Assembly (NCBI GenBank): GCA_016185545.1
Contig: JACPNJ010000005.1
Span: 79,013-143,012 of the forward strand
Source of the DNA: Candidatus Yanofskybacteria bacterium
GTDB lineage: Bacteria > Patescibacteriota > Minisyncoccia > 2-02-FULL-40-12 > IGHO2-01-FULL-4-A
DNA: 64,000 nucleotides
Reading direction: 5' to 3'
Each line of letters begins with the position of its first letter. Within the stretch, counting starts at the first letter, position 1. A program made the translations under genes and the position numbers. The notes below the pieces were generated by a model. That model made no database searches, had not been told where the DNA came from, and was given only the letters and a program-made list of their open reading frames with translations. Positions 2,081 through 64,000 of the stretch are shown here, piece after piece.

Positions 2081-3571
2081 CTAATCCGAGCGTGGTTTCA
2101 TGAGTGGAAACAAAATAACCTCCCTGACCGAATGCGAATCAGTGAGTAATACCACCAGCCGGTCTATGCCAATGCCGACACCGGCGGCTGGCGGCATACC
2201 GTATTCAAGAGCTTCTATATAATCTTCGTCCAGCCGCTGGGCTTCTTCATTTCCTTTTTTAGCAACTTTTTCCTGCGCCTCAAAACGCTGACGCTGATCA
2301 GTAGGGTCGTTAAGTTCCGAAAAAGCATTTACTACTTCCATGCCGCCAACAACAAGCTGGAAGCGTGCCACATGATTGGGGTCATCATCCAGTTTTTTGG
2401 CAAGTGGCGAAATTTCAAGCGGGTGGTTAATTACAAAAGTCGGCTGTATGATATTGGGTCTGGCAACTTTTTTATATATCTCGTCGCCGAGATTGCCTTT
2501 GTTCATGCTTTTTTCAATTTTAATATCCAGCTCCTTGGCTTTTTCTTTCAAATCATTCTCGTCCGATTTGTCATAATCAAGCCCGGAATATTTTTTAAAC
2601 AAGTCGTTAAATGTAACTCTCGGGTATGGCCCGACAAAATGAATTTCTTTGCCTTGGTGCTCAATTTTGGCAGTCCCAAACTTCTTTTCCACTATATGTT
2701 TTAACATTGACTCCACAAATTCCATGGCTTTCTCATAATCCCAATAGGCCGCGTAAAATTCCAGCATCGTGAACTCCGGGTTATGTTCCCTATCCATGCC
2801 CTCATTACGGAAATTGCGCCCGATTTCAAAGACTTTCTCAAATCCCCCGACTAATAGCCGCTTAAGATAAAGCTCCGGCGCTATGCGTAAATAAAGCGGG
2901 AGGTCAAGCGTGTTGAGATGCGTTTTAAACGGCTTGGCATTGGCGCCACCATATAATGTTTGTAAAATCGGCGTCTCCACTTCAAGAAAATCGTTGCTTA
3001 TCAAGTATTGGCGCAAATGTTCAATTATATTGCTTCTCGCTTCAAACTTGGTCTTAACTTCCTGGTTAAAAATCAAATCCAAATAACGCTTGCGGTAACG
3101 TTCCTCAACGTCTTGCAAACCGTGCCATTTTTCCGGCAATGGCAATAATGATTTAGTGAGTAGTGAGTAGTGAGTAGTGAGTAGAGTTCTTTCGTCTTGT
3201 TTGGTTTTAAAAAGCGTGCCGCCGACTTCAATAAAATCCCCGATGTCAACGGTTTTTATAAAAAACTCGTATTCCTTGCCACCCAACACATCTTTTTTGA
3301 AAAATAGCTGGATTTGAACTGGAACACTCGTGGTGAGCGAAATCGAACCATCTTGCAAATCAAAAAATGCCAAGCCACCATGTTCGCGTTTTGCCATTAC
3401 CCGTCCGGCTAATATAATTTCCATCTCTTTGGCCGCCAGATTATCAAAATCGGCCAGTGCTTCGGCAATCTTATGGGTACGCGAAGACCGCGCCGGATAC
3501 GCATCTATGCCGGCTTTTTGGAGTTTTTCTAATTTTTCCAGCCGTGCTTGGCGAAGATCGTTTAAAGCCAT
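2081..3571 (-). CDS. lysS: lysyl-tRNA synthetase, class II
   Basis: 496 aa; OB-fold anticodon-binding N-domain plus class II core (FRNEGMDREHNPEFTMLEFY, GGMEVVNAFSELNDP). Carries an internal heptamer array. Confidence 0.9.
   Translation of the reverse strand: MALNDLRQARLEKLEKLQKAGIDAYPARSSRTHKIAEALADFDNLAAKEMEIILAGRVMAKREHGGLAFFDLQDGSISLTTSVPVQIQLFFKKDVLGGKEYEFFIKTVDIGDFIEVGGTLFKTKQDERTLLTTHYSLLTKSLLPLPEKWHGLQDVEERYRKRYLDLIFNQEVKTKFEARSNIIEHLRQYLISNDFLEVETPILQTLYGGANAKPFKTHLNTLDLPLYLRIAPELYLKRLLVGGFEKVFEIGRNFRNEGMDREHNPEFTMLEFYAAYWDYEKAMEFVESMLKHIVEKKFGTAKIEHQGKEIHFVGPYPRVTFNDLFKKYSGLDYDKSDENDLKEKAKELDIKIEKSMNKGNLGDEIYKKVARPNIIQPTFVINHPLEISPLAKKLDDDPNHVARFQLVVGGMEVVNAFSELNDPTDQRQRFEAQEKVAKKGNEEAQRLDEDYIEALEYGMPPAAGVGIGIDRLVVLLTDSHSVREVILFPLMKPRSD
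3154..3184. repeat. (TAGTGAG)x4 heptamer tandem array inside lysS, in frame overall (encodes LLTTHYSLLT)
   Basis: Direct reading of gtgagtagtgagtagtgagtagtgagtag; the protein shows an extra LLTTHYSLLTK before the conserved KSLLPLPEKWHG. Confidence 0.9.
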
Positions 3572-7604: not shown

Positions 7605-8438
7605 TCATTTTAATATCACAAACAAACTGGAACCGAGGGAGGGGTCGAAGATGGGTTTAGCGGAAACGTTTTTGAAAAGGGTACTGGATGAGGATTCAAC
7701 CTTGATGATTTTGGCAACGAGCAGGGCCTCCGGCAAACCGTCAAGACCACTGGTAACAATTGTTTCGCCCTCTCTAATTTCATCGCTATTAGCCACAAGG
7801 TTAAGCACCAGATTATTTTGTAATTCGCCTTTTGTTTCAACCAGTGTTCGCGATTCCTGGACTTGTCCAGCATCAGTTTGGGACGGCTCAAACTGATGCT
7901 GGACAAGTCCGCTAATTTTAATACGTGGATCATCAATGAGCAAAATCAAAGCCGAATCATCAAAAACCTGCTCCGTGATGCCAACCAAAATATTGCCTGT
8001 CGCTATAACTGGCATCTTTTTTTCAATGCCGTTCTTTACGCCTTTGTTAATTAATGCCGTTGAGGACAAAGCGCTTCTTTGTATATTAAAAATCCGCGCC
8101 AATAATAACGGCGAATCCAGCCGTTTCGCTACCCCTAGTTCTTCTCTCAAAAAATTATTTTCGCGTTTTAAACTTTCAAGTTCCGCTAATTGCCCGCGTA
8201 AAATATTATTCTCCTTATAAAATCTGGCATTATCATCAATAATCATTTTGGTTTTTAAATATCCGGAAGAATACCTTGAAAAATTTAGCAGATTGTCCGT
8301 CAAAAAAATACCAGGTTTTTCTGTAATTTTATAGACAAAATTCTGCAGAAAATTATCCGTTAAATAATTATTAAAAAAAACAACCCCAGCGACAATTAAA
8401 ATGACGGCCAGATAGTTTTTATAAAAATTACGAGTCAC
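7605..8438 (-). CDS. mreC: rod shape-determining protein MreC
   Basis: 277 aa; N-terminal TM segment, coiled coil (LRGQLAELESLKRENNFLREEL), C-terminal beta domain; downstream of mreB. Confidence 0.75.
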   Translation of the reverse strand: MTRNFYKNYLAVILIVAGVVFFNNYLTDNFLQNFVYKITEKPGIFLTDNLLNFSRYSSGYLKTKMIIDDNARFYKENNILRGQLAELESLKRENNFLREELGVAKRLDSPLLLARIFNIQRSALSSTALINKGVKNGIEKKMPVIATGNILVGITEQVFDDSALILLIDDPRIKISGLVQHQFEPSQTDAGQVQESRTLVETKGELQNNLVLNLVANSDEIREGETIVTSGLDGLPEALLVAKIIKVESSSSTLFKNVSAKPIFDPSLGSSLFVILK

Positions 8439-10541: not shown

Positions 10542-11825
10542 TTATAACAAAATATCTACTATATTGTCAAGCTCTATTAGTTTGGCATCTTTCTCACCCC
10601 TCCTTTTTACTTCAACACTCTTCTTTTGTAAAGTCTTCTCACTGACGACAAATCGCAACTGACAGCCAATTAAATCGGCATCGGTAAACTTCTCACCGGC
10701 AGATTTGTCCATCCGGTCATCATACAAAACTTCTATGCCGCTATGCAAGACCTTTTCATAAATTTCATCTCCAGATTTTTCCGTTCCTTCCAATGCCAAT
10801 AGATGAACCTTAAATGGCGCTACCGCTTCCGGCCAAATAATTCCCTCATCATCATGGTGTATTTCCACCAAAGCTCCCATAACTCGCCCCAAGCCGATAC
10901 CATACGAACCCATGATCACGAGATGCGACTCCCCTTTCTCGTCAACAAATTTCAAATCAAACGCTTTTGAATATTTATCACCCAACGGAAAAGTATTGCC
11001 GACTTCAATTGATTTGCGCTCTACTATTTTGCCTTTGCATTTCGGGCACTGGCCGTTGTTCATTAATTTTGAAATCTCCTTATTCTCCGCGTATTCGCAT
11101 TTATCACAAATAAAAATCGTATCCTCGCCGATATCGGCAAGCACTTGAAACTCATGGGTGTTCTCCGCGGTAAATGTCCCGCCAGCGGCTATGGTATAAA
11201 TTGCCTTCAGCCCGCAACGGTGAAAAATCTTATGATATGCTCCTTTCACATCTTCATAATATCGCCAAAGGTCATCTTCCGAGGCGTGGAAACTATACAG
11301 GTCTTTCATCATAAACTCCCGCCCGCGCAATAAACCGGACTTGGCACGCGGTTCGTTGCGGAATTTGGTTTGTATCTGGTAAGCGGCAAAAGGCAGGTCT
11401 TTGTATGAACTGACGAAACGCGAAGCAATCGCCGTCAACACTTCTTCATGAGTCCAACCCAAAACAAAATTACTTAGAGGCTCAACCTCGTAGAGGCTCA
11501 ACCTCGTGGAGGTTGAGCCTCTACGTACTGCATGATCATTGGCTATCTTGAATCCTACCTCAACTTCCCATCTGCCAGTAGCATCAAGATATTTTTTTTC
11601 AACCAACGCCGGCATAAACATTTCTATCCCGCCGATCTTGGCCATTTCTTCTCTGATAATGCCAGCAATTTTTTGCATCACTCGCCAGCCCAACGGTAAA
11701 AAAGTGTAAATTCCCGCAGAGTTTTTGTATATGAAACCGCCACGCTCGAGCAACTGCGCATTAACGCTTGTTTCATCTTTGGGATTCTCGCGGGTTGTTT
11801 TGGTAAAAAGTTGAGATAACTTCAT
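10542..11825 (-). CDS. proS: prolyl-tRNA synthetase
   Basis: Class II aaRS motifs, zinc-binding CDKC...CPKC, C-terminal anticodon-binding domain; start at MKLSQLF; carries an in-frame palindromic insertion. Confidence 0.88.
   Translation of the reverse strand: MKLSQLFTKTTRENPKDETSVNAQLLERGGFIYKNSAGIYTFLPLGWRVMQKIAGIIREEMAKIGGIEMFMPALVEKKYLDATGRWEVEVGFKIANDHAVRRGSTSTRLSLYEVEPLSNFVLGWTHEEVLTAIASRFVSSYKDLPFAAYQIQTKFRNEPRAKSGLLRGREFMMKDLYSFHASEDDLWRYYEDVKGAYHKIFHRCGLKAIYTIAAGGTFTAENTHEFQVLADIGEDTIFICDKCEYAENKEISKLMNNGQCPKCKGKIVERKSIEVGNTFPLGDKYSKAFDLKFVDEKGESHLVIMGSYGIGLGRVMGALVEIHHDDEGIIWPEAVAPFKVHLLALEGTEKSGDEIYEKVLHSGIEVLYDDRMDKSAGEKFTDADLIGCQLRFVVSEKTLQKKSVEVKRRGEKDAKLIELDNIVDILL
11474..11525. 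repeat. palindromic element family A (GAGGCTCAACCTC x2 plus inverted copy) inserted in frame in proS
   Basis: ttagaggctcaacctcgtagaggctcaacctcgtggaggttgagcctctacg translates on the minus strand to RRGSTSTRLSLYEVEPL within ProS. Confidence 0.85.
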
Positions 11826-11995
11826 TACTTTTATGATAACAAATTCGCGGCTTGGTGAATAATGCCTCATAGCACCGTCAAAAGAGTGGATTGTAAGGTT
11901 TGCGAGCAGTATAATAGTAAAACACTGCAAGCAAAATCCACGCTTTTGACGGAACGTAGCAACCTCGCTGGGGTTGCAAGTGGTGATAGGAGGCG

Positions 11996-14716: not shown

Positions 14717-15625
14717 CTAGGCTAGCGAAACGAGAAAATTTTCTAGAGCTAATCTCTGATTAAACTGCGGCTTGTTTATTACTTCGTATAAAACAAGCAG
14801 ATTTTTGAGAATCTTGTGGGTTTTGGGTTCGTTCAAGCGCATTCTTAAATAAAGCATCCAGTACAAAACTTTCTTAGGCAATTCAGCTTTGTTTTTTTCA
14901 TCGGTAAGTTTTTGGGCAATGGTTAGCCGCTCATTGATATCCGATTTAATCAAATACATCACTTCTTCAACCGATTCTTTAACTTCATCAAATGATTTTT
15001 CATCTATGATTTTTTTAATAAGCCCTATCCTACCGTTGGCAAAATCAGTCAAAAAATCAATTTTAGTTTTTGATAATTTAAAATCTGCCAAAAAAATTTT
15101 GATAACCGTTTGCGAATGTGGCTGAAACTTAATTTCCTGACAACGGGAAACTATGGTCGGCAAAAGCGACTCCGAATTAGCGGAAACAAGAATCAGGATA
15201 GACGATAAATTCGGTTCCTCTAGAACCTTCAATAGGGCATTCTGCGCTTCCACTGTCATCAAATAAGCATTATCAATAACCACAAATTTATACGGACTAG
15301 CGCTATAGGGACTTAACGAAATAAAATTTTTAATTTTGCGCACATCTTCAATGGCTATAGTCTGTCCGCTTTCGGAATTGGCCGAATTGACAAATAAAAC
15401 ATCCGGATTATTTAGAGGCTCAACCTCGTAGAGGCTCAACCTCGTAGAGGTTGAGCCTCTAAATAGACTTATTTTAAACAAATTCTGTACCAATTCCAAC
15501 GCAAATGTACGCTTACCTATCATGTCTTGGCCGGTAAAAAGATAGGCATGGCTTAATTGGCCATTTTTTATGACTGTTTCAAAAAAAAATTTATTTTTAT
15601 CAAAACCGATTGTATGCCAAGTCAT
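14717..15625 (-). CDS. holB: DNA polymerase III delta-prime-like clamp-loader subunit
   Basis: 302 aa AAA+ fold (LFTGQDMIGKRTFALELVQNL); 4-nt overlap with murG; carries family A palindromic insertion. Confidence 0.7.
   Translation of the reverse strand: MTWHTIGFDKNKFFFETVIKNGQLSHAYLFTGQDMIGKRTFALELVQNLFKISLFRGSTSTRLSLYEVEPLNNPDVLFVNSANSESGQTIAIEDVRKIKNFISLSPYSASPYKFVVIDNAYLMTVEAQNALLKVLEEPNLSSILILVSANSESLLPTIVSRCQEIKFQPHSQTVIKIFLADFKLSKTKIDFLTDFANGRIGLIKKIIDEKSFDEVKESVEEVMYLIKSDINERLTIAQKLTDEKNKAELPKKVLYWMLYLRMRLNEPKTHKILKNLLVLYEVINKPQFNQRLALENFLVSLA
15413..15464. repeat. palindromic element family A inserted in frame in holB (encodes RGSTSTRLSLYEVEPL)
   Basis: ttagaggctcaacctcgtagaggctcaacctcgtagaggttgagcctctaaa; near-identical to the proS copy. 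Confidence 0.85.
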
Positions 15626-16755: not shown

Positions 16756-16763
16756 CTTGTTTG

Positions 16764-16791
16764 TTTCTAGTTTCTAGTTTCTAGTTTCTAG
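16764..16791. repeat. (TTTCTAG)x4 heptamer array immediately upstream of the murG start codon
   Basis: tttctagtttctagtttctagtttctag then T-run; 8 nt from ATG 16755. Confidence 0.9.
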
Positions 16792-16830
16792 TTTTTTTAA
16801 CCAGACGCCAGCAATAGAACTAGTGACTAA

Positions 16831-17082
16831 TTAAATCGCACCTTCTTGATGTAAAAGTTTTTGTTTTAGTTTACCACCGCGGTTATACCCGCCAATTTTA
16901 CCGTCATTTCTAATCACCCTGTGGCACGGTACATTGAGGTCATGATTTTTATTCAGCACGTTTCCCACCGCCCGATAAGCCCTTGGCCTACCAATAGCCT
17001 TCGCCACTTCCGTATAAGTCATCGTCTGTCCACGCTTGATGTTCTTAACTACATTATAAATTCTTTGTTCAAACTCGGTCAT
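16831..17082 (-). CDS. MGMT-family DNA-binding/alkyltransferase domain protein (83 aa, PCHRV motif)
   Basis: TYTEVAKAIGRPRAYRAVGNVLNKN...VPCHRVI matches the O6-alkylguanine-DNA alkyltransferase C-domain with the active-site Cys. Confidence 0.8.
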   Translation of the reverse strand: MTEFEQRIYNVVKNIKRGQTMTYTEVAKAIGRPRAYRAVGNVLNKNHDLNVPCHRVIRNDGKIGGYNRGGKLKQKLLHQEGAI

Positions 17083-17221
17083 ATTGACTTTTGTATAGAC
17101 ATTTTGTTATCATATAAACAAGGGTTGACTCACTTTCTATTATCTATCCCTTAGGCCCTTAGGCTATGCGCGGCATCTACTCTGTTGCCGCTGGGTAAAG
17201 CCCCTCCCTGGCCATTTTGGC

Positions 17222-17250
17222 CCAGGCCACGTTCCAACCCGCGTGGCTTT
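17222..17250 (+). terminator. hairpin gccacg...gcgtggc + T8
   Basis: gccacgttccaacccgcgtggcttttttta on the + strand, between minus-strand genes. Confidence 0.4.
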
Positions 17251-17252
17251 TT

Positions 17253-18965
17253 TTATTTTAATAATTTAAGCATTTCTCGCCAAACTCTTGTATTTATCAC
17301 GTCTTTTTTGCCAGACCACCCTCTGCGCGCTTGAGCTATACCTAATTCCAAAAATTTGAAGTGGCTAATATCATGAGCATCGGAATCAATCGCCAGCTTG
17401 ATTCCAGTATCAATGGCTTTGCGGATATATTCGTCTTTGAGGTCCAGACGTTCCGGCCAAGCGTTGACTTCCAGCACCGTTTTGGTCCGTTTAGCGGCTT
17501 TTATAAGCTCATCAATATTCACTTTGTACGGCTCTCTTTTTTGTATCAACCGACCCGTGGGATGGAATAATATATCGATGTTCGGATTTTCTATCGCCCT
17601 AATTATACGCTTCGTCATTTCAATTTCCGACATAGTAAAATTAGAGTGTACAGACGCTCCGACTACATCAAGTTTGGCCAACACCTCGTCATTTATATCA
17701 AGCGTGCCGTCTTTCAGTATATCCACTTCGCTACCCTTGAGAATTTTAATGCCGCTAATTTGTTTTTGAACTTTATCAATTTCAGCCATTTGCTTGGTCA
17801 GCTTTTTTTCATCCAATCCGCCGGCCATAGCAAGTCGCTTGGTGTGGTCGGTTATAACAATATATTCAAGCCCCAGTTTTTTTGCCGCTTCAGCCATTTC
17901 CTTAATTGAATGTTCGCCATCAGTCCAATCGGTCTGAACCTGTAAATCGCCACGCAGATCATCATAACCGATTAGTCTCGGTAATTCTCCCTTAAATGAT
18001 GATTTTATTTCTCCGCTATTCGTTCTAATTTCCGGCTCCATCCACTCCATGCCTAATTTTTTATAAATCTCCTCTTCTGTTTTTCCAGCGACAAGTCTTT
18101 TACTTTTAAAAAGTCCATACTCGTTCAACTTGTATCCTTTTTTAATCGCAATCTCCCGAACGGCTATATTGTGGTATTTGTCTCCGGTAAAATATTGAAG
18201 CGCCGCCCCGAATGATTCCGGCGGCAGAACGCGTACGTCGGCATTCATTCCCATTTTTAACCGCACCGAGGTTTTAGTCGGACCTTTGACCAATATTTCC
18301 TGAACTTCAGACATTTTTACAAAATAATCCATAACTTTCGCTGGCATGTCGGAAATAACCAGAATGTCTAAATCACCCACAGTTTCCTGCATCCTCCTGA
18401 TTGAACCGGCTGGTTCGGCCCGTTTGATATAAGGCAAGCCGCGCAAATCATCCAGCATTTTGCGGACAGTCGGCAAAATATGGCCCAACAAAAAACGGCC
18501 GTGTGACTGCCGCAGGAATTCTATGCCTTTTAATATTTTTTGCTCGGATTTCTCGCCAAGACCCTCAAGTCCCCGCAATTTGCCAGCTTTAGCTGCTCTT
18601 TCTAGGTCGTCTTGATTCTTGATTCTTAATTCTTGATATAATTTTTTAACCAGCTTTGGTCCAACTCCTTCAATACCCATCAGCTCCTCCACTTCAATAG
18701 GAAATTGTTTTTTTAACTTTTCGTAATCTTTAATATGACCTGTTTTGATATATTCTTCAATTCGTTCGGCAATGCCTTGGCCAACACCAGATATGTCTTC
18801 AAGCGCTTTGAGTCCGCCTTTTTTATAAATTTCACCTATGCCCTCTTCAAGAGATTGTACGGAAAATGCCGCATGCTCATACGCCCGCGGCTTAAATTCC
18901 ACTTCTTTCATATCCAAAAACGCCGCCATCTCCCCCAAAATTTTCGCCAGCCCCTGGTTAGACAT
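17253..18965 (-). CDS. polX: family X DNA polymerase with C-terminal PHP domain
   Basis: 570 aa; HhH and Pol-beta-like nucleotidyltransferase N-half; PHP histidinol-phosphatase-like C-half (HSNFTMSE...DSDAH). Confidence 0.88.
   Translation of the reverse strand: MSNQGLAKILGEMAAFLDMKEVEFKPRAYEHAAFSVQSLEEGIGEIYKKGGLKALEDISGVGQGIAERIEEYIKTGHIKDYEKLKKQFPIEVEELMGIEGVGPKLVKKLYQELRIKNQDDLERAAKAGKLRGLEGLGEKSEQKILKGIEFLRQSHGRFLLGHILPTVRKMLDDLRGLPYIKRAEPAGSIRRMQETVGDLDILVISDMPAKVMDYFVKMSEVQEILVKGPTKTSVRLKMGMNADVRVLPPESFGAALQYFTGDKYHNIAVREIAIKKGYKLNEYGLFKSKRLVAGKTEEEIYKKLGMEWMEPEIRTNSGEIKSSFKGELPRLIGYDDLRGDLQVQTDWTDGEHSIKEMAEAAKKLGLEYIVITDHTKRLAMAGGLDEKKLTKQMAEIDKVQKQISGIKILKGSEVDILKDGTLDINDEVLAKLDVVGASVHSNFTMSEIEMTKRIIRAIENPNIDILFHPTGRLIQKREPYKVNIDELIKAAKRTKTVLEVNAWPERLDLKDEYIRKAIDTGIKLAIDSDAHDISHFKFLELGIAQARRGWSGKKDVINTRVWREMLKLLK
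18611..18637. repeat. (CTTGATT/CTTAATT)x~4 heptamer array inside polX
   Basis: cttgattcttgattcttaattcttgat, coding ..ELRIKNQDD.. Confidence 0.8.
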
Positions 18966-19761: not shown

Positions 19762-19763
19762 AA

Positions 19764-19843
19764 CTAGTTGCTAGTTGCTAGTTGCTAGTTGCTAGTTAAA
19801 GAACAATCAAACAAAACTAAAAACTAGAAACTAAAAACTAGAA
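19764..19843. repeat. (CTAGTTG)x~5 followed by (CTAAAAACTAGAAA)x2 tandem arrays, immediately upstream of the MFS-like gene start
   Basis: ctagttgctagttgctagttgctagttgctagtt ... ctaaaaactagaaactaaaaactagaaact. Confidence 0.85.
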
Positions 19844-19844
19844 A

Positions 19845-21119
19845 CTACTTAATCTGCGGCAACCCAAACCCTGATGCATTATCATCCCCAAGGGGTGATA
19901 GATCAGTTGCTAATAAGTGCAAAAAGTCACGGGTAGTCGTCATCGGGTCGGTAACTGCTGATTGCCAGTATTTAGCCGCTAATCCGGCTACAAAAGGCGA
20001 AGCCATAGAAGTCCCTGAAAGTATCACGTAACTGCCGTTATTCCATGTTGATTCAATATATTCGCCCGGTACGGCAAATTCAATATCGCGATCCTCAACA
20101 ATCCAAGAGGTGGAATCTGAGTTGGTGCCTCGTGAACTCCAGTTAGTTACGGTTATAGATTGGTCAATGGCGCCCACCGCTACAACCGAAGCATAAGCGG
20201 CTGGATAATCCACACTGTTGGGAAATGGCCCGTCATTGCCCGCGGCCGCCACAAGCAGAACTCCCTTAAACGAGGCGTAGTTGACGGCATCGCGTATTAG
20301 CGATGATTCTTGATCTGAACCGAAACTCATATTTACCACATTAGCTCCCTGGTCAGCCGCCAAACGCAGGGCTACGGCAATATCATCAGCGTAACAAGAA
20401 CCATTGGTTCCGCAAACTTTATAAGCAAAAATATTAGCTTGAGGCGCAACTCCGTAAATACCCCTGCCATCAGCACCGGCATTAGCCGCTATAATCCCGG
20501 CAACATGAGTACCGTGGCCATTTCTATCATCGCATTTACCGTCAATAATCGGAAAGCGTGAATTTGTAAAATCCTTGCATTGAACAATGCGCTCGGCTAA
20601 ATCCGGGTGTGAAACATTAACTCCCGTATCCAAGACGGCCACATTTGCATCCGCACCACCGAAAGTAGAGGTAATCAAGGAATCGTTGTATATTTTTTCG
20701 ATTCCCCATGGCGTCTGGTCAGACGGTAAATATCTGACAGTACCGCCCTTGCCTTTTGTTGCTTTTGGTACAAAAATTTTGGTTGGTGCCGGAGTTTGAA
20801 TATCTGAAACTTCGGGCGTTGGTTTAACTGATGAATCTTGGTTCGGTTGTTCGATAGCCAATGGGTCTTCAGGTAAAATTTGCAGTACGGCAACAGGTTC
20901 AATTTCTACTCCAAAAATTTTGGCCAACCGCAATTGAAAATCAGAAGCATCGGTAGTGAAACCGTTATCAAAATTATGCCTTACCCCAAGAGCATTTTTC
21001 CAAAAACCCTTGGTTGACTTAACAAAATACCTGCCATTGTCGGCAGCATGAGCGGTAGGCAAAAATACCAAAAAAAACGTTAAAAGCAAGCAAAAAACCA
21101 GTTTTTTAGTAATATTCAT
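19845..21119 (-). CDS. secreted subtilisin-like serine protease (S8)
   Basis: Signal peptide; catalytic triad motifs VLDTGV, HGTHVAG, GTSMASP. Confidence 0.88.
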   Translation of the reverse strand: MNITKKLVFCLLLTFFLVFLPTAHAADNGRYFVKSTKGFWKNALGVRHNFDNGFTTDASDFQLRLAKIFGVEIEPVAVLQILPEDPLAIEQPNQDSSVKPTPEVSDIQTPAPTKIFVPKATKGKGGTVRYLPSDQTPWGIEKIYNDSLITSTFGGADANVAVLDTGVNVSHPDLAERIVQCKDFTNSRFPIIDGKCDDRNGHGTHVAGIIAANAGADGRGIYGVAPQANIFAYKVCGTNGSCYADDIAVALRLAADQGANVVNMSFGSDQESSLIRDAVNYASFKGVLLVAAAGNDGPFPNSVDYPAAYASVVAVGAIDQSITVTNWSSRGTNSDSTSWIVEDRDIEFAVPGEYIESTWNNGSYVILSGTSMASPFVAGLAAKYWQSAVTDPMTTTRDFLHLLATDLSPLGDDNASGFGLPQIK

Positions 21120-21232: not shown

Positions 21233-22645
21233 TTAGGCGAGCAATACCTTTCTCGTGCTAATTTTGTGGCTGTTTATGCTTATCAGCGCCAACGCCATCC
21301 AAAAAATTAAACTCCCCTGCTGAGAGGTCCAGAGAAAATGGTCAAAAATGCCAACAAGCAAAAATAAAAAACTAAAAATGAAAAATAAGAAACTGAAAAG
21401 TTTCTTAAAATCGGCGCAACGAATAAAATGCCAAAAGCTAAAAAATAAAAACAACAGGAAGACACTAAAACCAATAAATCCGGTTTCGCTCGCAATCAGT
21501 AAGTAAATATTGTGGACCGGTTGGTAGGCGGTTGCCGGCAAATGTTTATATTTAAACATGAAATCAGGCACGAATTGGCCGATACCAATGCCCAGTAATG
21601 GATGGGAAACAGCCACGGATTCGGCAATTTTATTGTAAAAAACTCTCTCGGAAAAGGCTGGATCTTGTCCCGAAATATGAATACGAGAATTAACTTGCGG
21701 CCAATAAATGAGAGAAAATACAGTCGCAGCAATAACCGATACTACAAAAATTTTAAAAATTTTTTGTTTAAGAATTAAATCCCGACGAAACTCTTTTTTA
21801 AAAAAAACGGCTAAAAATCCGGCTAATGTGCCCAAAACCCAAAGCCCGACAACCACTCGCGAAAAAGTAGAAAAGAGAGCAAAAAGCAAAATAATATAAA
21901 CAAACAGCAATAAACCATCCTTAGTTCTTTGGACTTCGGGCGGGTTCTTTTTTGTATCTCGATGTAAAAAGTAAAAACAAAGTGCAAAGATAGTTGTAAA
22001 AAGCCAAGCGGCAAGTATGTTGGGATGCGGGGTAGTCCCATAGGCGCGTAGGTATTTTTCGCCGCCGGCAAAAAATATTGCAACTCCGGTAGTATTCACC
22101 GATAGCGGACTCTCGCCAAGCAATCGCAGACTAATACTCCCCTGCTTGAGATATTGGACGATACCGATGACGGCCTGAAAAAGACCGGAAGCGATAATAA
22201 TTACCAAAACGGTGCGAAATTGAAAAACTTTGCCAAAATTAGATTTAAGGTAAAAATAAAACCCGATAAATTCCGCCAATTTGAGCAATTGGTAAAAAGA
22301 TAAGCCGACAATTCGTGAGTTAAAAATTGAAATCGCCGAAATTACGAAAAAAATTACCAGCCAGAATGTAGAAAATTTTAAAATTTGAAATTTGGGCTTT
22401 AAAAATTCATTTGAAATTTGAAATTTGAAATTTGAAATTTTCCAACTGCCCGCCATGATTCTTATTATCCAAAAAACAAATAATGTCACCAAAAGAATAT
22501 CTGTGCCATAAAGGTATGTGTTAGTCCACTGATTAAACGGCCGGGTCCACTCATATAAAATCACCCGTGCCTGCACCGGCACCGCAAAGATCAGTAGATA
22601 AAAAACGGCGGATTCAAGTTTCTTAAATAGGTATTGACTTTGCAT
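21233..22645 (-). CDS. O-antigen ligase/polymerase-like polytopic membrane protein
   Basis: 470 aa, >10 TM helices; Wzy_C-like loop; contains a heptamer array. Confidence 0.45.
   Translation of the reverse strand: MQSQYLFKKLESAVFYLLIFAVPVQARVILYEWTRPFNQWTNTYLYGTDILLVTLFVFWIIRIMAGSWKISNFKFQISNEFLKPKFQILKFSTFWLVIFFVISAISIFNSRIVGLSFYQLLKLAEFIGFYFYLKSNFGKVFQFRTVLVIIIASGLFQAVIGIVQYLKQGSISLRLLGESPLSVNTTGVAIFFAGGEKYLRAYGTTPHPNILAAWLFTTIFALCFYFLHRDTKKNPPEVQRTKDGLLLFVYIILLFALFSTFSRVVVGLWVLGTLAGFLAVFFKKEFRRDLILKQKIFKIFVVSVIAATVFSLIYWPQVNSRIHISGQDPAFSERVFYNKIAESVAVSHPLLGIGIGQFVPDFMFKYKHLPATAYQPVHNIYLLIASETGFIGFSVFLLFLFFSFWHFIRCADFKKLFSFLFFIFSFLFLLVGIFDHFLWTSQQGSLIFWMALALISINSHKISTRKVLLA
22375..22441. 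repeat. (GAAATTT)n heptamer array inside the membrane protein gene
   Basis: aaatttgaaatttg ... gaaatttgaaatttgaaatttgaaattt; encodes KFQISNFKFQ.. Confidence 0.8.
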
Positions 22646-24281: not shown

Positions 24282-24380
24282 TACTTTTATTCTAAACAAA
24301 AAGCCAAAACCACGCAACAAGACTATACACAAACTTCGCCTTCAAAAGAATATTTTTTCAATATGCTACCCGGGGTGTAT

Positions 24381-24402
24381 TCACAACATTCTCACATTCT
24401 CA
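24381..24402. promoter_or_regulatory. palindrome cattctcaagaatatgagaatg (with direct repeat cattctca x2) upstream of mgtC
   Basis: 8-bp arms; position consistent with an operator. Confidence 0.25.
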
Positions 24403-24446
24403 AGAATATGAGAATGCCATCGGTGATTGTGCATATTTGAAAAACA

Positions 24447-24470
24447 AAAACCCGGTTCGCGCCGGGTATC
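24447..24470 (-). terminator. hairpin cccggcgcgaaccggg + T-run after the secreted protein gene
   Basis: Minus strand reads gatacccggcgcgaaccgggtttttg. Confidence 0.45.
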
Positions 24471-24479
24471 AATGAGAAA

Positions 24480-28894: not shown

Positions 28895-30316
28895 CTATAA
28901 TTCGAATGATTCGCCCTCAACTGGCGCTACGGCTTCAATGCCATATTTTTCGTGAATTAGATTAGCGAGGGTGCGGGCGGATTCGTCTTCGCCTTGAACG
29001 ACAAAGACTTTTTTTAGATTGCCCGCACCGCCGCCTTGAACTGTTGAACCGCCAACCCACTTGATGAGACTTAGCTGATCGGCATGGGCGGAATAAGCTG
29101 ACAGGTTTTCTATATGGCACTTGACTGGCACCGTTTGGCCCATGATTCTGACTTCTTTTTCGCCCCTTTGAATGCGCCGGCCCAAACTGCCGTCAACTTG
29201 GTAACCGACAAAAAGTATCGTGCTGTTTGTATCCGGTAAATAACGCATTTCGTGATGCAAAATCCTGCCACCTTGGCTCATGCCTGAACCGGCAATTATA
29301 ATCTTAGGCGCCGGCACGTTATTTATCGCTTTTGATTCTTCGACGGCGGTTGTGAGTTTTAAACCCGGGAAATTAAATACGTCGTCACCGGAACCGATCA
29401 AATACGCCGTCTCTTTATTAAAATATTCGCGGTGTTTTTGGTATACAGCGGTCATTTTATTGGCGAGGGGGCTGTCAACAAACACCGGTACCCGTGGAAT
29501 TTTATTTTCATTGAAAAGCCCGTTTAATTCATGCAGAAGCTCTTGCGTGCGCTCAACGGCAAATGAGGGTATCATCAGCACCCCGCTTCGCTTGATTGTG
29601 TCCTCAATTACCGAAATCAGCTTACTTCTTCTCTCCTTTCTGCCCTCATGCACTCGATCACCATAAGCCGATTCAATAACAATATAGTCGGCATTTTTAA
29701 TTTTTTCGGTCGGTCGCAGAAGCGGCGTCGGCGGATTGCCGAGGTCGCCAGAGAAGAAAATCTTTCTGGTACCAGAAAGATTTTCTTCTCTGGCTTGGTA
29801 ATTGGTAATTGGTAATTGGTAATTGGTTCGCCATTGTATTTCTACAATTGCCGAACCCAGTATATGACCTGCGTCATGGAAAATTGCAGTAATCCCCTCC
29901 AGTTCAATCGGTTCATCATAAAAAACCCCCTCCACAAGCGACATCAGCCCGTCCAGATCCTCCTGTATAAATAATGGCTCATGTCCCATCTCTTTAGCTT
30001 CATCCAAAATCTTATTCAAATTATCAGGAAGTGCGACGGCCATCAGGTCGCGGGTGGCAGTGGTCGTGTAAACTTTGCCGCGGAAACCGTCTTTGTAAAG
30101 TTTCGGCAAACGCCCGATGTGGTCAATATGGCTGTGGGTAATAAAAACATATTTAATCTCTGCGGGATTATATTTGAATTGACCATAATTCAATTCTTCG
30201 GCATATCTTGTGCCTTGATTCAAGCCGCAATCTACGAGTATTTTGGTATGGCCGTGTTCGAGTAGATAATTAGCTCCGGTAACGGTACGAGCACCACCAT
30301 AAAAAGTTATTTTCAT
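28895..30316 (-). CDS. RNase J-like beta-CASP metallo-beta-lactamase ribonuclease
   Basis: HSHIDHIG motif; MBL plus beta-CASP plus RNA-specificity-like C-terminus; contains a heptamer array. Confidence 0.8.
   Translation of the reverse strand: MKITFYGGARTVTGANYLLEHGHTKILVDCGLNQGTRYAEELNYGQFKYNPAEIKYVFITHSHIDHIGRLPKLYKDGFRGKVYTTTATRDLMAVALPDNLNKILDEAKEMGHEPLFIQEDLDGLMSLVEGVFYDEPIELEGITAIFHDAGHILGSAIVEIQWRTNYQLPITNYQAREENLSGTRKIFFSGDLGNPPTPLLRPTEKIKNADYIVIESAYGDRVHEGRKERRSKLISVIEDTIKRSGVLMIPSFAVERTQELLHELNGLFNENKIPRVPVFVDSPLANKMTAVYQKHREYFNKETAYLIGSGDDVFNFPGLKLTTAVEESKAINNVPAPKIIIAGSGMSQGGRILHHEMRYLPDTNSTILFVGYQVDGSLGRRIQRGEKEVRIMGQTVPVKCHIENLSAYSAHADQLSLIKWVGGSTVQGGGAGNLKKVFVVQGEDESARTLANLIHEKYGIEAVAPVEGESFEL
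29797..29827. repeat. (GGTAATT)x4 heptamer array inside the RNase J-like gene
   Basis: ggtaattggtaattggtaattggtaattgg encoding ..NYQLPITNYQ.. Confidence 0.85.
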
Positions 30317-32540: not shown

Positions 32541-32653
32541 TTACAAAATCATTGCTCTAATGTAAATCTCAAAATGTAAAATGACAGTTAAAAATTTGAA
32601 ATTTTACGCTTTAATTTTGCATTTTGATTTTTAAATTTTGAATTTAGTTCGCC

Positions 32654-38576: not shown

Positions 38577-38585
38577 GGAGGGCTT

Positions 38586-42452: not shown

Positions 42453-42457
42453 GGAAA

Positions 42458-42488
42458 GAATCTAGAATCTAGAATCTAGAAACTAGAA
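42458..42488. repeat. (GAATCTA)x3 + GAAACTA heptamer array abutting the ruvA start
   Basis: gaatctagaatctagaatctagaaactagaatt. Confidence 0.85.
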
Positions 42489-42552
42489 TTAAGAGTTAAT
42501 TTAATCATAAGACGACTGGCTGTTTTTTGCAAAAGAATGTTTAAGTTATCCT

Positions 42553-51298: not shown

Positions 51299-51303
51299 AA
51301 ATC

Positions 51304-51402
51304 AGGTGTCAGGTGTCAGGTGTCAGGTGTCAGGTGTCAAAGTTTAGAAGTTATTTTATCTTATACTCTGTAACCTGTAACCTGTAACCTGTAACCTGTA
51401 AC
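51304..51402. repeat. (CAGGTGT)x5 and (CTGTAAC)x5 heptamer arrays filling the 100-bp intergenic region
   Basis: caggtgtcaggtgtcaggtgtcaggtgtcaggtgt ... ctgtaacctgtaacctgtaacctgtaacctgtaac; the first abuts the start at 51298, the second abuts the stop at 51402. Confidence 0.9.
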
Positions 51403-53705: not shown

Positions 53706-55055
53706 TCAGAATAGCCATCTCCTCTTTTCTAGCTTTTGCCCTATAAATAATCTCAAAAATGATTTAGTCACGACTATTGAGCTGAATAAACTCATTAATA
53801 CTCCAATGCCCAGTGTTAAAGCAAAACCTTTGACTACCGAGATTGAAAAAATATACAAAATAATGGCACCCAGTATAGTCGTCACGTGACTGTCGCGTAT
53901 TGAATACCAGGCCCGATGGAAACCTTCGTTAAATGACTGCGGCAATGATTTACCTGCCTTAAATTCCTCGCGAAAACGGGCAAAAATTAAAACATTGGCA
54001 TCAACGGCCATGCCCAGAGATAGTATGAATCCGGCAATACCAGCCAGGGTCAGCGTGACTGGTACCAGTTTATAAATAGCCAGAACGATAATGGTATAAA
54101 TCAAAAGCGCCAGAACTGAAACCACGCCGGGAAGACGATAAAAAAGTATCATGAAAATTGCTACCAGCAATAAGCCATAAAGACCGGCCCGGAGAGATCT
54201 TTGGAGTGATTCCTGCCCCAATGATGGACCGATTGTCTGCTGTGAAATGAGCGTTATTGGAACCGGCAAAGCGCCAGCATTAAGATTATTGGCAAGATCC
54301 CTCGCTTCTTTTATCGTAAATCCACCGCTGATAACGGCGCGACCGCCCTGTATTTCGCTTTGGACTGTTGGCGCGCTTATGACCAAACCGTCAATATATA
54401 TGGCGACTCGTTTACCGAGATTGCGTCTGGTGATTTCAGCGAATAACTTAGCACCATCATCGTTCAGTTCCAGTGATATTTGCGGCTGTGATGTGGTTTG
54501 ATCAAAGGCAAGCTGGGAACGTTTGAGATGCTTGCCGGTCAGACCGGTTGATTGAAAATACGGGTCTTCGCCAAGCTGTTGGCCTTTTTGCTGGGCATCA
54601 AGGATTTTTTGTGATTCTTCCTGTGTTCGTTCTTCCTTGAATTCTAGAAACGGCGTTTGGCCTATCATTTGGATTGCTTGGTTAACATCGCTGATACCGG
54701 CCAGCTCCACAACCAATCTGTCTCTGCCCTCTATCTGAACTAACGGTTCGGCTACACCAAAAAGATTGACTCTGCGCTCTATTACATCGCGCACACCGGC
54801 CATGGCATCACCAGCATCCTGTCCGCTACTGTCGGAAAGATCGGCTTGATAAACCAAATGGGTACCACCAAGAAGGTCTAAACCGAGACGAAATGACGGA
54901 ACTTTAAACATATGCGGAACTTTGAACTTTGAACTTTGAACTTTGAGTTTAGCGTTAACGATGTCCGCCCCCTTGTCCCATCCTTGCGGATACACAAAAA
55001 CCGCCAAAAACAGTGCGGCGGCCAAAATTATCAGCGGTGTAAATTTACGAAGCAT
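53706..55055 (-). CDS. secD: protein translocase subunit SecD
   Basis: 449 aa; SecD architecture (LLGGTHLVY... and C-terminal TMs). Confidence 0.88.
   Translation of the reverse strand: MLRKFTPLIILAAALFLAVFVYPQGWDKGADIVNAKLKVQSSKFKVPHMFKVPSFRLGLDLLGGTHLVYQADLSDSSGQDAGDAMAGVRDVIERRVNLFGVAEPLVQIEGRDRLVVELAGISDVNQAIQMIGQTPFLEFKEERTQEESQKILDAQQKGQQLGEDPYFQSTGLTGKHLKRSQLAFDQTTSQPQISLELNDDGAKLFAEITRRNLGKRVAIYIDGLVISAPTVQSEIQGGRAVISGGFTIKEARDLANNLNAGALPVPITLISQQTIGPSLGQESLQRSLRAGLYGLLLVAIFMILFYRLPGVVSVLALLIYTIIVLAIYKLVPVTLTLAGIAGFILSLGMAVDANVLIFARFREEFKAGKSLPQSFNEGFHRAWYSIRDSHVTTILGAIILYIFSISVVKGFALTLGIGVLMSLFSSIVVTKSFLRLFIGQKLEKRRWLF
54917..54950. repeat. (GAACTTT)x4 heptamer array in the SecD N-terminal region
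   Basis: Encodes KFKVPHMFKVPSF. Confidence 0.85.
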
Positions 55056-61492: not shown

Positions 61493-64000
61493 TTATCTCC
61501 CATGACATCTTTTATATTTTTTACCTGACCCACAAAAACATGGGGCATTCCTTCCTATTCTCGCATGGTCGAGAATGTTTGATGGCCGACTTGATTCTTG
61601 CTCCATTTGTTTTGAGACAGCTGACCGACTAACTGCCAAATCCTCACGTTTTTCTTCAATTGCAACAGTTTTTGGCTGTTGGACAAATCCAACCTTAAAA
61701 ATTAAACCCGCCACTTGCGCTCCAATGGCCTCCTGCAGTTGAGTGAACATTTTTTGGCCTTCTATTTTATATTCAACTAACGGATCGCGCTGGCCGTAAG
61801 CACGCAGGCGCACCGAGTCGCGAAGATACTCCATCTGTTCAAGATGATCAACCCACAGCTCGTCTATCACGCGTAGTAAAACCATTTTCTCAATATGTCT
61901 CATTGATTCCACGCCTGTTTGCTGTTCACGCTGAATATAAACTTCATCAATCAAACCATGCAGAAATTCGGATAATTTGCCTGGCCCATTCGATGAGTTC
62001 AGGTCAAGCTCTTGTGGTTTTGCGATTTCGTTTAATTTAGCGTGCAAATCGCCAACCATCGGCATCAGAGTTTTAACACTCTCGGCTATTTCTTCGGTAT
62101 TATATCCCCCCGTTTCGCTTAAAGCGTGGAATTGCATAATTTTATCAATATGTTCGTGAATATAATTATTTATTTTGTCCTTGACGCCTTCTCCCCCCAG
62201 TATTTCCTTGCGCAAACTGTAAATCGCGGTTCTGTGGCGATTCATTACATCGTCATATTCTAGGACGTATTTTCGGATATCAAAGTTGTTGCCTTCAATT
62301 TTGGATTGGGCTTGCTCTATGGCGCGGGAAACGAAACGGTTTTCAATAACATCGTCTTCGCTTACGCCAAGCCGATCCATCAAGTTTTTAAGACGATCGC
62401 CGCCGAATATGCGTACCAGCTCATCTTCGGTGGATACAAAAAACTGCGAAGAGCCCGTGTCGCCCTGCCGGCCGGAACGTCCACGCAATTGATTATCTAT
62501 GCGCCTTGCTTCGTGCCTCTCCGTCCCAATCACATGTAAACCTCCTAATTCCTTTACTCTTTTATTTTCTTCCTCCCAATTTTTATATTCTTCATTTAAA
62601 AGTTTATCTTCTTCAATTTTAAATTTTGCCTGCCCCGTAGGGTCGCGAAGCGACTCCTTCGGGGAATTTTGAATTTTGAATTTGCTAGGCGCATGCCCGC
62701 CGAGCATGATATCAACACCCCTGCCGGCCATATTGGTTGCCACCGTAACAGCGCCGAGCCGACCGGCTTGAGCAATAATTTCACCCTCTTGTTCGTGGTT
62801 TTTGGCATTTAAAACTTTGTGCGGTATACCTTCACGGTTGAGATGCACCGATAAAAGTTCATTTTTAATAATCGCCGCCGTACCAACAAGTACCGGTTGA
62901 CCTTTAAGATGCCGCCCCTTGATTTCGGCAACAATTGCTCTGAATTTACCCGCTTCTGTTTTATATATACGATCGGGTAAATCAGCACGTATCATTTGTT
63001 TGTTGGTGGGAATAGTAACGACATCCAGTTTGTAAACCTTGTGAAACTCTTCAGCTGATGTCTGCGCCGTGCCGGTCATACCGGTAAGTTTTTTATACAA
63101 GCGAAAATAATTTTGGAAAGTAATCGTGGCATAAGTTCGGGATTCTTTCTGGACATATACCCCCTCTTTGGCTTCAATCGCTTGATGCAATCCCTCCGAC
63201 CATCGCCGCCCCGGCATTAAACGGCCGGTAAATTCATCTACTATGATTACTTCACCGTCTTTTACAACGTAATCCTTGTCGCGGTGGAAAAGAATTTGCG
63301 CTTTCAACGCCTGTTCAAGATGGTGAACATAACGAGTACCGCCTTCCTCGTAGATGTTTTTGAGATTCAGCACGCTTTCAACTTTTTCAATGCCTTTTTC
63401 GGTAATTGACACGGCTTTCAATTTTTCATCAACATTATAGTCTTCGTTTTCGTGGAGACGTGGAACAATTTTGGCAAAAGTTTCGTAAAGCTTAGTTGAA
63501 TCAGAATCCGGTGCAGAAATAATTAGCGGGGTTCTGGCTTCATCTATTAAAATGGAGTCAATTTCGTCAACAATGGCATAATTATGCCCTCGGGTCTGCG
63601 CAACTTGCCCCAATTCATATGCCATGTTGTCCCGTAAATAATCAAAACCGAATTCGTTATTGGTCCCATAAGTAATGTCGGCTTCGTATGCTTCTCGCCT
63701 AGTAACCGGACGCAGAAATTCATGAACAACCCTGAATGCCCCTGTTTCATCGCGTATTTCGTCTAATTTTCGTGATTTATCATTTTCTTTTTCACTTTTG
63801 AATTTGAAATTATCATTTTGAATTTTGAATTTTGAATTTTGAATTTCGCTATGCAGTGGATCATAAACGTAACTCATTTCATGGTTCAAACATCCGACAT
63901 TCATTCCGAGAAGATGGTATATCTGCCCCATCCATGCCGCATCGCGCCTTGAGAGATAATCGTTCACGGTAACTATGTGGACCCCATTAGAAGTAGCCGC
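61493..64000 (-). CDS. secA: preprotein translocase ATPase SecA (N-terminus beyond window edge)
   Basis: DEAD motor, GGLHVIGTERHE, C-terminal zinc finger CFCGSGKKYKRCHG; ORF open to position 64000. Confidence 0.92.
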   Translation of the reverse strand, partial: AATSNGVHIVTVNDYLSRRDAAWMGQIYHLLGMNVGCLNHEMSYVYDPLHSEIQNSKFKIQNDNFKFKSEKENDKSRKLDEIRDETGAFRVVHEFLRPVTRREAYEADITYGTNNEFGFDYLRDNMAYELGQVAQTRGHNYAIVDEIDSILIDEARTPLIISAPDSDSTKLYETFAKIVPRLHENEDYNVDEKLKAVSITEKGIEKVESVLNLKNIYEEGGTRYVHHLEQALKAQILFHRDKDYVVKDGEVIIVDEFTGRLMPGRRWSEGLHQAIEAKEGVYVQKESRTYATITFQNYFRLYKKLTGMTGTAQTSAEEFHKVYKLDVVTIPTNKQMIRADLPDRIYKTEAGKFRAIVAEIKGRHLKGQPVLVGTAAIIKNELLSVHLNREGIPHKVLNAKNHEQEGEIIAQAGRLGAVTVATNMAGRGVDIMLGGHAPSKFKIQNSPKESLRDPTGQAKFKIEEDKLLNEEYKNWEEENKRVKELGGLHVIGTERHEARRIDNQLRGRSGRQGDTGSSQFFVSTEDELVRIFGGDRLKNLMDRLGVSEDDVIENRFVSRAIEQAQSKIEGNNFDIRKYVLEYDDVMNRHRTAIYSLRKEILGGEGVKDKINNYIHEHIDKIMQFHALSETGGYNTEEIAESVKTLMPMVGDLHAKLNEIAKPQELDLNSSNGPGKLSEFLHGLIDEVYIQREQQTGVESMRHIEKMVLLRVIDELWVDHLEQMEYLRDSVRLRAYGQRDPLVEYKIEGQKMFTQLQEAIGAQVAGLIFKVGFVQQPKTVAIEEKREDLAVSRSAVSKQMEQESSRPSNILDHARIGRNAPCFCGSGKKYKRCHGR
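62624..62690. repeat. family B palindromic element inserted in frame in the secA variable linker (encodes NSPKESLRDPTGQAK)
   Basis: Direct sequence identity to 59420..59452. Confidence 0.8.
63815..63847. repeat. (ATTTTGA)x4 heptamer array in the secA C-terminal linker
   Basis: Encodes KFKIQNSKFKIQN. Confidence 0.8.

Follow-up and report, generated by a model that had tools for sequence, protein, structure and literature searches.

Why do core genes of a candidate-phyla bacterium contain tandem arrays of a 7-nt unit, and what kind of process places them there? The question arises from a 64-kb stretch of one 'Candidatus Yanofskybacteria' metagenome-assembled genome (MAG), that of a tiny groundwater bacterium, hereafter the window, in which a first-pass annotation had pointed to a heptanucleotide array in the lysyl-tRNA synthetase (LysRS) gene lysS and to five more in polX, an O-antigen-ligase-like gene (Wzy-like below), an RNase J-like gene, secD and secA. 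This study revealed that these arrays belong to a real, non-random excess of period-7 repeats, which is probably the local trace of a mutation process that generates heptamer repeats specifically, acts throughout the lineage and is filtered by selection, similar to the one behind the short tandemly repeated repetitive (STRR) sequences of cyanobacteria. The window was compared with fragments of related genomes amounting to 1.17-1.27 Mb of related loci (L001-L104) and with homologous proteins (P####, where P0121 is identical to the window LysRS). Arrays were detected with Tandem Repeats Finder (TRF) and an exact-repeat script, and 50 order-2 Markov shuffles served as the null. The closest genome matches of the window LysRS come from 'Candidatus Yanofskybacteria' and other Patescibacteria MAGs, and the proteins P0001, P0121 and P0241, which are identical to window proteins, belong to an NCBI Yanofskybacteria MAG.

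TRF identified 13 distinct period-7 arrays in the window, all consisting of head-to-tail copies of a 7-nt unit, along with several arrays of period 14 and 21. With the exact-repeat script, ten perfect arrays of at least 3.5 copies were found for period 7 and none for periods 5, 6 and 8-15, while the shuffles gave 0.0 period-7 arrays. Both programs recovered the six in-gene arrays of the first-pass annotation inside open reading frames (ORFs), where it had placed them or within 2-4 nt. When unit lengths were tabulated with TRF for the relatives' loci as well (1.27 Mb), period 7 was again the commonest (25 arrays), followed by period 14 (13 arrays) and period 21 (8 arrays). The same excess is present in the relatives at about one eighth of the density (about 156 per Mb in the window vs an average of about 20 per Mb, or roughly 8x). 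The common generating mechanism suggested by the annotation is the best reading of this excess.

The run lengths of the arrays are also informative. In the window they are bimodal, with a chance-level class of 14-15 nt and nine arrays of 30-38 nt, and hardly any runs of 17-25 nt between them; in the relatives, perfect period-7 runs have a second mode at 29-33 nt, which is seen for no other period. A second mode at 29-38 nt that is restricted to period 7 argues against simple stepwise growth. Arrays originate with, or are kept close to, 4-5 copies. The unit sequence differs in all 13 window arrays, and the families TAGTGAG/CTCACTA, AAATTCA and ACTACAA recur across genes and lineages. Across the window and the loci, array units are AT-rich (29% GC vs 43% for the window); TAG or CTA is found in 19 of 42 units (45%, vs 13% of random 7-mers), and a stop triplet is present on one strand in 40 of 42 (vs 52% of random 7-mers). 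Further tandem repeats of period 14 or 21 were observed at 14984-15014, 21360-21399, 49960-50007, 58260-58308 and 62582-62627, several of them within ORFs (holB-like, Wzy-like, secA).

With regard to location, the annotation had placed the arrays in essential coding sequence. A coding location holds for six of the 13, which lie within the intact ORFs of lysS, polX, the Wzy-like gene, the ribonuclease gene, secD and secA. The other seven (starting at 16763, 19764, 19813, 32613, 42457, 51302 and 51368) are outside ORFs, mostly as inverted pairs, and since ORFs leave just 14% of the sequence uncovered, the density of arrays in spacers is about seven times that in genes. The essentiality of the hosts likewise stands in part: lysS and secA are single-copy housekeeping genes, whereas polX and Wzy-like genes are usually dispensable in other bacteria.

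The array in lysS (3154..3184, minus strand) consists of 4.4 perfect copies of TAGTGAG, or CTACTCA on the coding strand, which is read as LLTTHYSLLT. The segment that it overlays is variable and directly precedes the conserved LLPLPEKWHG motif; judging from homologous LysRS of solved structure, we take the segment to be the last strand of the N-terminal oligonucleotide/oligosaccharide-binding (OB) fold domain. The array aligns without gaps with Geobacillus LysRS ('tlltthyslltk' over 'sikvssyefltk') and with every orthologue that was examined. Moreover, the distance between GDF and PLPEKWHG is constant in the 75 closest of 120 LysRS homologues, and no intermediate with seven residues more or fewer was found at this site among the 75 homologues inspected. 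Most LysRS homologues show TLEV[HE]xY[KR][LI]L[AST]K at this position, and the array-type peptide TLLTTHYSLLTK or decayed forms of it are found in the window protein (P0121) and in P0134, P0138, P0158, P0133, P0128 and P0185.

The distribution of these peptides does not follow the relationships of the proteins. Outside the masked segment, P0121 shares 90% identity with the array-free P0122 and only 75% with the array-bearing P0134, and P0134 and P0138 are 89-92% identical to the array-free P0139 and P0141. In a neighbour-joining tree built with the segment masked, array bearers fall into at least five separate clades. At the nucleotide level, the window, L098 and L099 have an identical 30-nt stretch in common, CTACTCACTACTCACTACTCACTACTCACT, with 4.3 copies in all three, whereas the window gene is 71% identical overall to lysS of L098/L099 and the sequences start to differ 1-3 nt beyond the array on each side. 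Conversely, L001 is 83% identical to window lysS overall and 37% identical over the 30 nt, of which 19 differ, and L103 compares with L098/L099 in the same way (84-86% overall, 37% over the 30 nt). Partly decayed copies are present in L002, L100 and L101, and a second type of array, CAAACTA (read as QTTNY), occupies the same codons in L102 (P0123), its peptide recurring in the distant P0175. These arrays represent repeated gains, since loss could not restore a clade-specific ancestral sequence; on these comparisons the lysS array is polyphyletic and has presumably arisen repeatedly in separate lineages.

The boundaries of the lysS array coincide with conserved residues: the last unit supplies the codons CTC ACT A(AA) of the conserved Leu-Thr-Lys, and the first unit supplies a conserved Leu (CTA). 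A single 7-nt seed that is reiterated backwards as far as the next conserved residue would give the observed product every time. Elsewhere in the same protein, an 8-residue insertion, ISLTTSVP (3319-3342, codons 77-84), is located in the OB-fold domain and is absent from L001-L005 and from Geobacillus LysRS, and the LysRS of L002 has a 10-residue insertion of its own, SAKGGSASGG, at a different place.

Two further arrays are length-neutral. The polX array (18610..18637, minus strand) comprises four copies of ATCAAGA on the coding strand with one mismatch; it is read as YQELRIKNQD within a helix-hairpin-helix motif and aligns without gaps with PolX of T. thermophilus (3AU2). The secD array (54917..54946, minus strand) comprises 4.3 copies of TCAAAGT on the coding strand and is read as LKVQSSKFKVP between the first transmembrane helix and the GLDLxGG motif; L015, L017 and most homologues listed have just as many codons there. 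Its unit is a one-base variant of the TCAAAAT-type array that is common in the relatives' SecD, where it encodes KIQNSKFKI, a three-frame reading of AAATTCA. At the four unit positions, L104 shows TCAAAAT, TCAAAAC, TCAAAGT and TTAGGAT, and the window shows TCAAAGT at all four. From L104 to the window, KIQNSKF[RK]I has thus become KVQSSKFKV, a homogenisation with zero change in length.

The remaining three arrays are found in loops or insertions of variable length. The gene labelled RNase J-like by the annotation is better described as a beta-CASP metallo-beta-lactamase ribonuclease. Its array (29795..29827, minus strand; 4.7 copies of ACCAATT on the coding strand, read as TNYQLPITNYQ) is located in a hypervariable hairpin loop after VEIQW, at which orthologues have from 0 to about 35 extra residues. 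In L094, L096 and L097 this loop carries arrays of other heptamer units (TYYCCAA, AAYYCAA, ACTCGCA and ACTACAA), and in L092 there is none. The array is abutted by a perfect 48-nt palindrome (29747..29794, minus strand) of 24+24 nt without a spacer, in which the half 29771-29794 (AREENLSG) is an inverted copy of codons 29747-29770 (TRKIFFSG). As TRKIFFSG aligns with the conserved [KR]K[IV][YF]FSG strand of beta-CASP orthologues, the 57-nt insertion can be divided into a 33-nt array and a 24-nt inverted duplication. The inverted duplication is evidence for a putative template switch beside the array.

The Wzy-like gene, of the O-antigen ligase family, has an array of about nine copies of TTCAAAT (22377..22440, minus strand; perfect part 22409-22440); it is read as KISNFKFQISNEFLKPKFQILK and lies in a loop that differs in length between orthologues. 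The secA array (63796..63846, minus strand; TCAAAAT on the coding strand, perfect part 63815-63846) is read as EIQNSKFKIQNDNFKFKS. It is located inside a variable insertion of about 55 residues in nucleotide-binding domain 1, which is also present in Thermotoga SecA. The SecA peptide EIQNSKFKIQN is produced by the same unit, AAATTCA, as KIQNSKFKI of SecD.

The in-gene arrays are consequently of two kinds, namely length-neutral overlays (lysS, polX and secD) and fillers of hypervariable loops (the beta-CASP, Wzy-like and secA genes). All six ORFs are in frame. The window LysRS aligns end to end with LysRS structures of the PDB, the other five ORFs carry the Pfam domains PolX, Wzy_C, Beta-Casp/RMMBL, SecD and SecA, and SecD with its array has the same sequence in two independent assemblies (P0241). 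Over-extended ORF starts were considered as a cause of in-ORF arrays and rejected, as homology or a transmembrane helix is present on both sides of each array. No partner arms were found in the window for the in-gene arrays. With regard to the idea that copy number is locked, the frame is necessarily kept in the ORFs, and the 4.3 copies in lysS are constant across three lineages. However, the proposal that only changes of three units preserve the frame does not capture the events in lysS, polX and secD, where about 30 nt have been replaced in place with zero change in length.

Outside genes, arrays tend to form hairpins, which were folded as single sequences; a consensus fold of six orthologous spacers was uninformative, as MAFFT lost the repeat register. 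One inverted pair (51302..51402, minus strand) is located between a sigma-r4/HARE-HTH gene (51402-52517) and the ORF at 50021-51298. It consists of five copies of GTTACAG (51402-51368) and 5.4 copies of CACCTGA (51339-51302), with arms complementary at 5 of 7 nt per unit and a fold of -35.2 kcal/mol (z -5.35). The other pair (19764..19847, minus strand) lies between genes for an S8 peptidase and an MFS protein and combines 4.9 copies of CTAGTTG (19764-19797) with five of AAACTAG/AAACTAA (19813-19847); its 36-nt arms are 81% complementary and its fold has -27.6 kcal/mol (z -4.27). Both fold into long hairpins with a helix of 5-6 bp per 7 nt and small internal loops in between. Of the single arrays, all on the minus strand, that at 16763..16794 (GTTTCTA x4.6, fold z -3.67) is upstream of the murG-like ORF 15622-16755 and has a partly complementary partner at 16813-16829. 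The one upstream of ruvA (42457..42489, AGAATCT x4.7, fold z -3.06) is self-complementary because its unit contains TCTAGA, and the array at 32613..32645 (AATTTTG x4.7) is degenerate, with 76% matches and a weak fold (z -1.5).

The two-arm architecture is shared by relatives. A two-arm spacer also follows the sigma-r4/HARE-HTH gene in L012, L014, L015, L016, L017, L077 and L104, the proteins of L012, L014-L017 and L077 being 39% to 76% identical to those of the window, and its units differ from locus to locus (TAGCGNT/ACGCTAT, TAGTGAG/CAACTAC, AGAATAG/AATCCTC). Between L015 and L016 the flanking genes are 84-90% identical and the spacer only 53%; the units of both arms have changed and still pair, indicating that the two arms turn over fast and in concert.

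Several minor features of these spacers were recorded. In L097, the counterpart (11762-11844) of 19762-19844 contains inverted arrays of 9-nt units, three copies of AAGTTCATC and three of ACTTTATAA, so that the architecture of a periodic hairpin persists although the period differs. In mRNA sense, arm 1 of the spacer hairpins is usually TAG-N4. A sigma-70-like match at 51381-51353 (minus strand), with GTTACA of the array as -35 and TAAAAT of the hairpin loop as -10, would drive the ORF 50021-51298. Intrinsic (Rho-independent) termination was not supported as an identity for the paired arrays, which are long, AT-rich periodic stems without a consistent T-run; canonical terminators were found elsewhere in the window by scan, for example at 44797-44764. 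None of the hairpins matched an Rfam family at gathering score, the sole match in the window being one tRNA (46487-46559).

How could a single process lead to these different outcomes? The mutation process that we favour would act everywhere. In spacers it would build inverted pairs that form 7-nt-periodic hairpins and turn them over quickly. In genes, the arrays that survive would be those that are in frame, free of stops in all three frames of the unit, and placed on segments that tolerate a 7-residue peptide. Such a filter would leave length-neutral overlays in lysS, polX and secD, and arrays in hypervariable loops in the beta-CASP, Wzy-like and secA genes.

As to how the arrays are written, we tentatively propose templated rewriting by a nascent end that is re-copied or misaligned. 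A nascent DNA end carrying a 7-nt seed may be re-copied repeatedly, or may be transiently misaligned by one unit, and would then resume at a downstream microhomology, with the result that a patch of about 30 nt becomes 4-5 copies of the seed in one or a few events. The same class of template switching could make inverted copies, namely the 29747-29794 palindrome and the complementary arms of paired arrays. Transient-misalignment (dislocation) substitutions and quasi-palindrome correction, described by Kunkel and by Ripley, are clustered substitutions that copy a nearby direct or inverted template with no net change in length. Their hallmark, clustered changes that exactly copy an adjacent template, is seen in lysS, in secD and in the palindrome, which as a perfect inverted duplication is a classic product of a fold-back switch. 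Known events of this type usually alter one to a few bases, and we know of no description of about 30 nt being rewritten into 4-5 copies of a 7-nt seed. The proposed mode fits the polymerase-footprint idea of Mrazek, as it is quoted by later authors, but goes further in requiring length-neutral events. A more far-reaching version, which we regard as possible but rather doubtful, would be an undescribed templated mutagenesis of Parcubacteria that is tied to a polymerase or to repair. It would rewrite patches of about 30 nt as 4-5 heptamers, copy arrays onto opposite hairpin arms, hit the same lysS codons in at least five lineages, and shape loops and conserved segments of core proteins, and its hairpins may be recruited as intergenic RNA elements.

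A number of points weigh against the favoured process. Its enzyme and its steps are hypothetical, and it does not account for the choice of 7 nt or of about 4.5 copies. The closest array-free relatives do not have the exact lysS seed (CTG GCA AAA in L001; CTC GCT AAA, one base off, in L103), so five convergent gains of the same 30 nt would need either frequent mutation to the seed or an external template. The recurrence of unit families and the enrichment of TAG/CTA are not predicted by a purely sequence-blind process, and function instead of mutation bias could be the reason why the paired arrays keep their position. Finally, the survey covers 64 kb of this genome and fragments of its relatives. 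As for the dedicated element envisaged by the annotation, Pfam scans of the 51 ORFs of the listed gene set of the window identified neither such an element nor a reverse transcriptase or other candidate 'writer'.

Ordinary slippage is the textbook route to simple sequence repeats, and it would agree with the variable length of the loop-borne arrays (beta-CASP, Wzy-like and SecA) among orthologues and with intergenic copy numbers that range from 4 to 10.6. For the overlays, it would have to proceed by growth in steps of 21 nt followed later by a compensating deletion of native codons, length neutrality being a coincidence enforced by selection. We consider this unlikely, given that the 75 LysRS homologues include no intermediate in either direction, that every one of the three arrays in conserved segments leaves the length exactly unchanged, that run lengths are bimodal rather than decaying, and that identical 30-nt products in separate clades would need two independent indels each time. 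The arrays could instead be nucleic-acid elements under selection, serving as hairpins in RNA processing, stability or regulation, as UAG-N4 platforms for an oligomeric RNA-binding protein (HutP-like or cold-shock-protein-like, with 7 nt per subunit), or as three-frame stop traps, the in-gene copies being kept for such a role. The position and two-arm architecture of the spacers, which persist at 39% to 76% protein identity despite changes in sequence, would fit this explanation, as would folds far more stable than those of shuffles (z -4 to -6.7), the TAG/CTA enrichment and the complete nucleotide conservation of the lysS array, all synonymous sites included; CspB, moreover, binds one protein per heptamer (PMC4679880). 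Yet the units differ among loci and so offer no single binding motif, sister lineages do without the lysS array and L092 without the one in the beta-CASP loop, the in-gene arrays have no partner arm, and the hairpins are neither followed by a terminator-type U-tract nor matched by an Rfam family. Such a selected origin is, in our judgement, about as improbable as slippage.

The identical 30 nt in distant lineages might also suggest that the lysS array spread among co-occurring lineages by very short-patch homologous recombination of DNA taken up from outside. The 60 nt upstream are 82-85% identical to L098/L099, against a gene average of 71%, which is attributable to the highly conserved peptide that they encode. 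Downstream, L001 reaches 90% identity and L098/L099 only 75%; in every pair the match breaks off 1-3 nt past the array on both sides, and a tract of exactly array length in at least five clades is implausible. Because no tract extends beyond the array, we regard such transfer as very unlikely. It is still harder to view the arrays as contingency loci, that is, genes switched by single-unit slippage. Heptanucleotide repeats in the 5' coding region of E. coli neuO do act in this way, but the hosts here include the single-copy housekeeping genes lysS and secA, all six ORFs are in frame, lysS copy number is equal in three lineages, and SecD is identical in two assemblies (P0241); phase variation is accordingly highly improbable. 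Assembly artefacts can practically be dismissed, since the arrays (25-38 nt) are judged shorter than typical sequencing reads and the same or orthologous arrays occur in independent assemblies from other samples and assemblers (L002, L094-L099, L104 and P0241).

The favoured process, an STRR-like heptamer-specific mutagenesis, has precedents among known repeats. To our knowledge, an excess of 7-nt repeats has been on record since 1990 (STRR) and 2007 (Mrazek) without a mechanism. Like the STRR of Calothrix, Nostoc and Anabaena and the excess described by Mrazek, the window shows tandem 7-nt units and an excess of period 7 only, which would here be genome-wide. As in STRR, the arrays are mostly intergenic, have few copies each and sometimes occur as inverted pairs; the predominantly intergenic location holds here by density, although six of the 13 arrays lie in ORFs. 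STRR are also reported to occur within the gene for RNase P RNA and to lengthen a helix there. In contrast to STRR, which comprise two or three fixed families, the window units appear diverse, differing in all 13 arrays, though some families recur across genes and lineages. The arrays also overlay conserved coding segments length-neutrally, with the same array gained repeatedly at one codon position. The host also differs, being a Patescibacteria MAG rather than the cyanobacterium to which STRR in the strict sense belong. HIP1, the cyanobacterial octamer, was not found in the window, and its absence together with the Patescibacteria relatives rules out a cyanobacterial origin of this DNA.

According to the accounts of Mrazek's 2007 work given in PMC4692102 and PMC4679880, a heptamer excess had already been described in some bacterial genomes, and slippage related to the polymerase footprint was put forward for 7-nt units. 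The GGGNATC arrays of Xanthomonas and Nostoc (PMC4692102), for which the modal copy number in Xanthomonas is 4, and the TAACTGA arrays of Beggiatoaceae and cyanobacteria (PMC4679880) are abundant, have 2-6 or more copies and are found near gene ends. As in the window, their length and sequence vary between close relatives, and stop codons in the unit restrict genic placement. They differ in having one favoured unit per genome and in being essentially intergenic, and compared with the G-rich GGGNATC arrays, the window units are AT-rich, varied and not G-quadruplex forming, with about half of the arrays in ORFs. The amino acid tandem repeats (aaTRs) of Borgs (PMC9879509) are also perfect, recent and locally seeded, are found in spacers and ORFs, have independent origins and, where genic, are shaped by selection. 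However, within ORFs all Borg units have lengths divisible by three and create additional disordered regions, whereas the 7-nt unit of the window, translated in all three frames, gives a 7-residue period and in many cases takes the place of existing residues without added length. The neuO tract of E. coli K1 resembles the window arrays in having a 7-nt unit in a coding region, where only multiples of three keep the frame, but the window arrays are short, fixed in copy number and found in housekeeping genes. Tracts in neuO are long, vary between cells and turn a dispensable surface-modifying enzyme on and off. Among the hosts here, only the Wzy-like gene fits such a dispensable role in surface functions or modification; the other five (lysS, secA, secD, polX and the gene of the beta-CASP RNase) count as housekeeping genes.

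While the heptamer excess itself was already known, its presence in candidate-phyla bacteria, with recurrent length-neutral overlays in core genes and heptad-periodic hairpin pairs, appears to be new. Literature searches, whose coverage was incomplete, returned no paper on heptamer or 7-nt repeats in Patescibacteria or the Candidate Phyla Radiation. The cases described here amount to natural experiments, namely the repeated gain of 30 nt at one site of an essential gene, the in-place homogenisation of units and the concerted turnover of paired arrays, which constrain the mechanism to length-neutral, templated and burst-like events. They indicate how 7-residue periodic peptides could enter candidate-phyla core proteins through mutation bias and not through adaptation, and thus bear on the many unexplained insertions in proteins of these bacteria. 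They are also relevant to alignments and phylogenies, as trees can be misled by segments that became identical through convergence.

The window contains other repeats as well. A 54-nt palindromic element occurs at 11474-11527 and at 15412-15465, each time as two copies of TAGAGGCTCAACCTCG followed by an inverted copy, and both are read as RGSTSTRLSLYEVEPL. It is in frame in two unrelated housekeeping ORFs, a class-II aminoacyl-tRNA synthetase (10542-11930) and a Pol III delta'-like protein (14717-15625), and resembles selfish insertions in coding sequence of the Rickettsia-palindromic-element type. Five long inverted repeats with arms of 17-22 nt were observed at 7859-7910, 33916-33961, 41314-41361, 44764-44797 and 46566-46610, four of which are perfect and one (33916-33961) 95% complementary; three lie in ORFs (MreC, Mur ligase, FemAB), one is GC-rich and terminator-like after uvrB, and one is beside a tRNA.

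Concerning gene content, the close relative L092 (GCA_041643055.1) encodes at 16684-18059 a cassette resembling a diversity-generating retroelement (DGR), with bAvd and a reverse transcriptase (RVT_1), between Lon and MgtC; the window counterpart at 24332-25032 is without this cassette and has only a 154-aa ORF with no Pfam matches. A PrkA / DUF444 / SpoVR cluster of three genes (35101-40793, plus strand) is located on the strand opposite to nearly all other genes, and the sole interval of positive GC skew in the window (36-40 kb) coincides with it.

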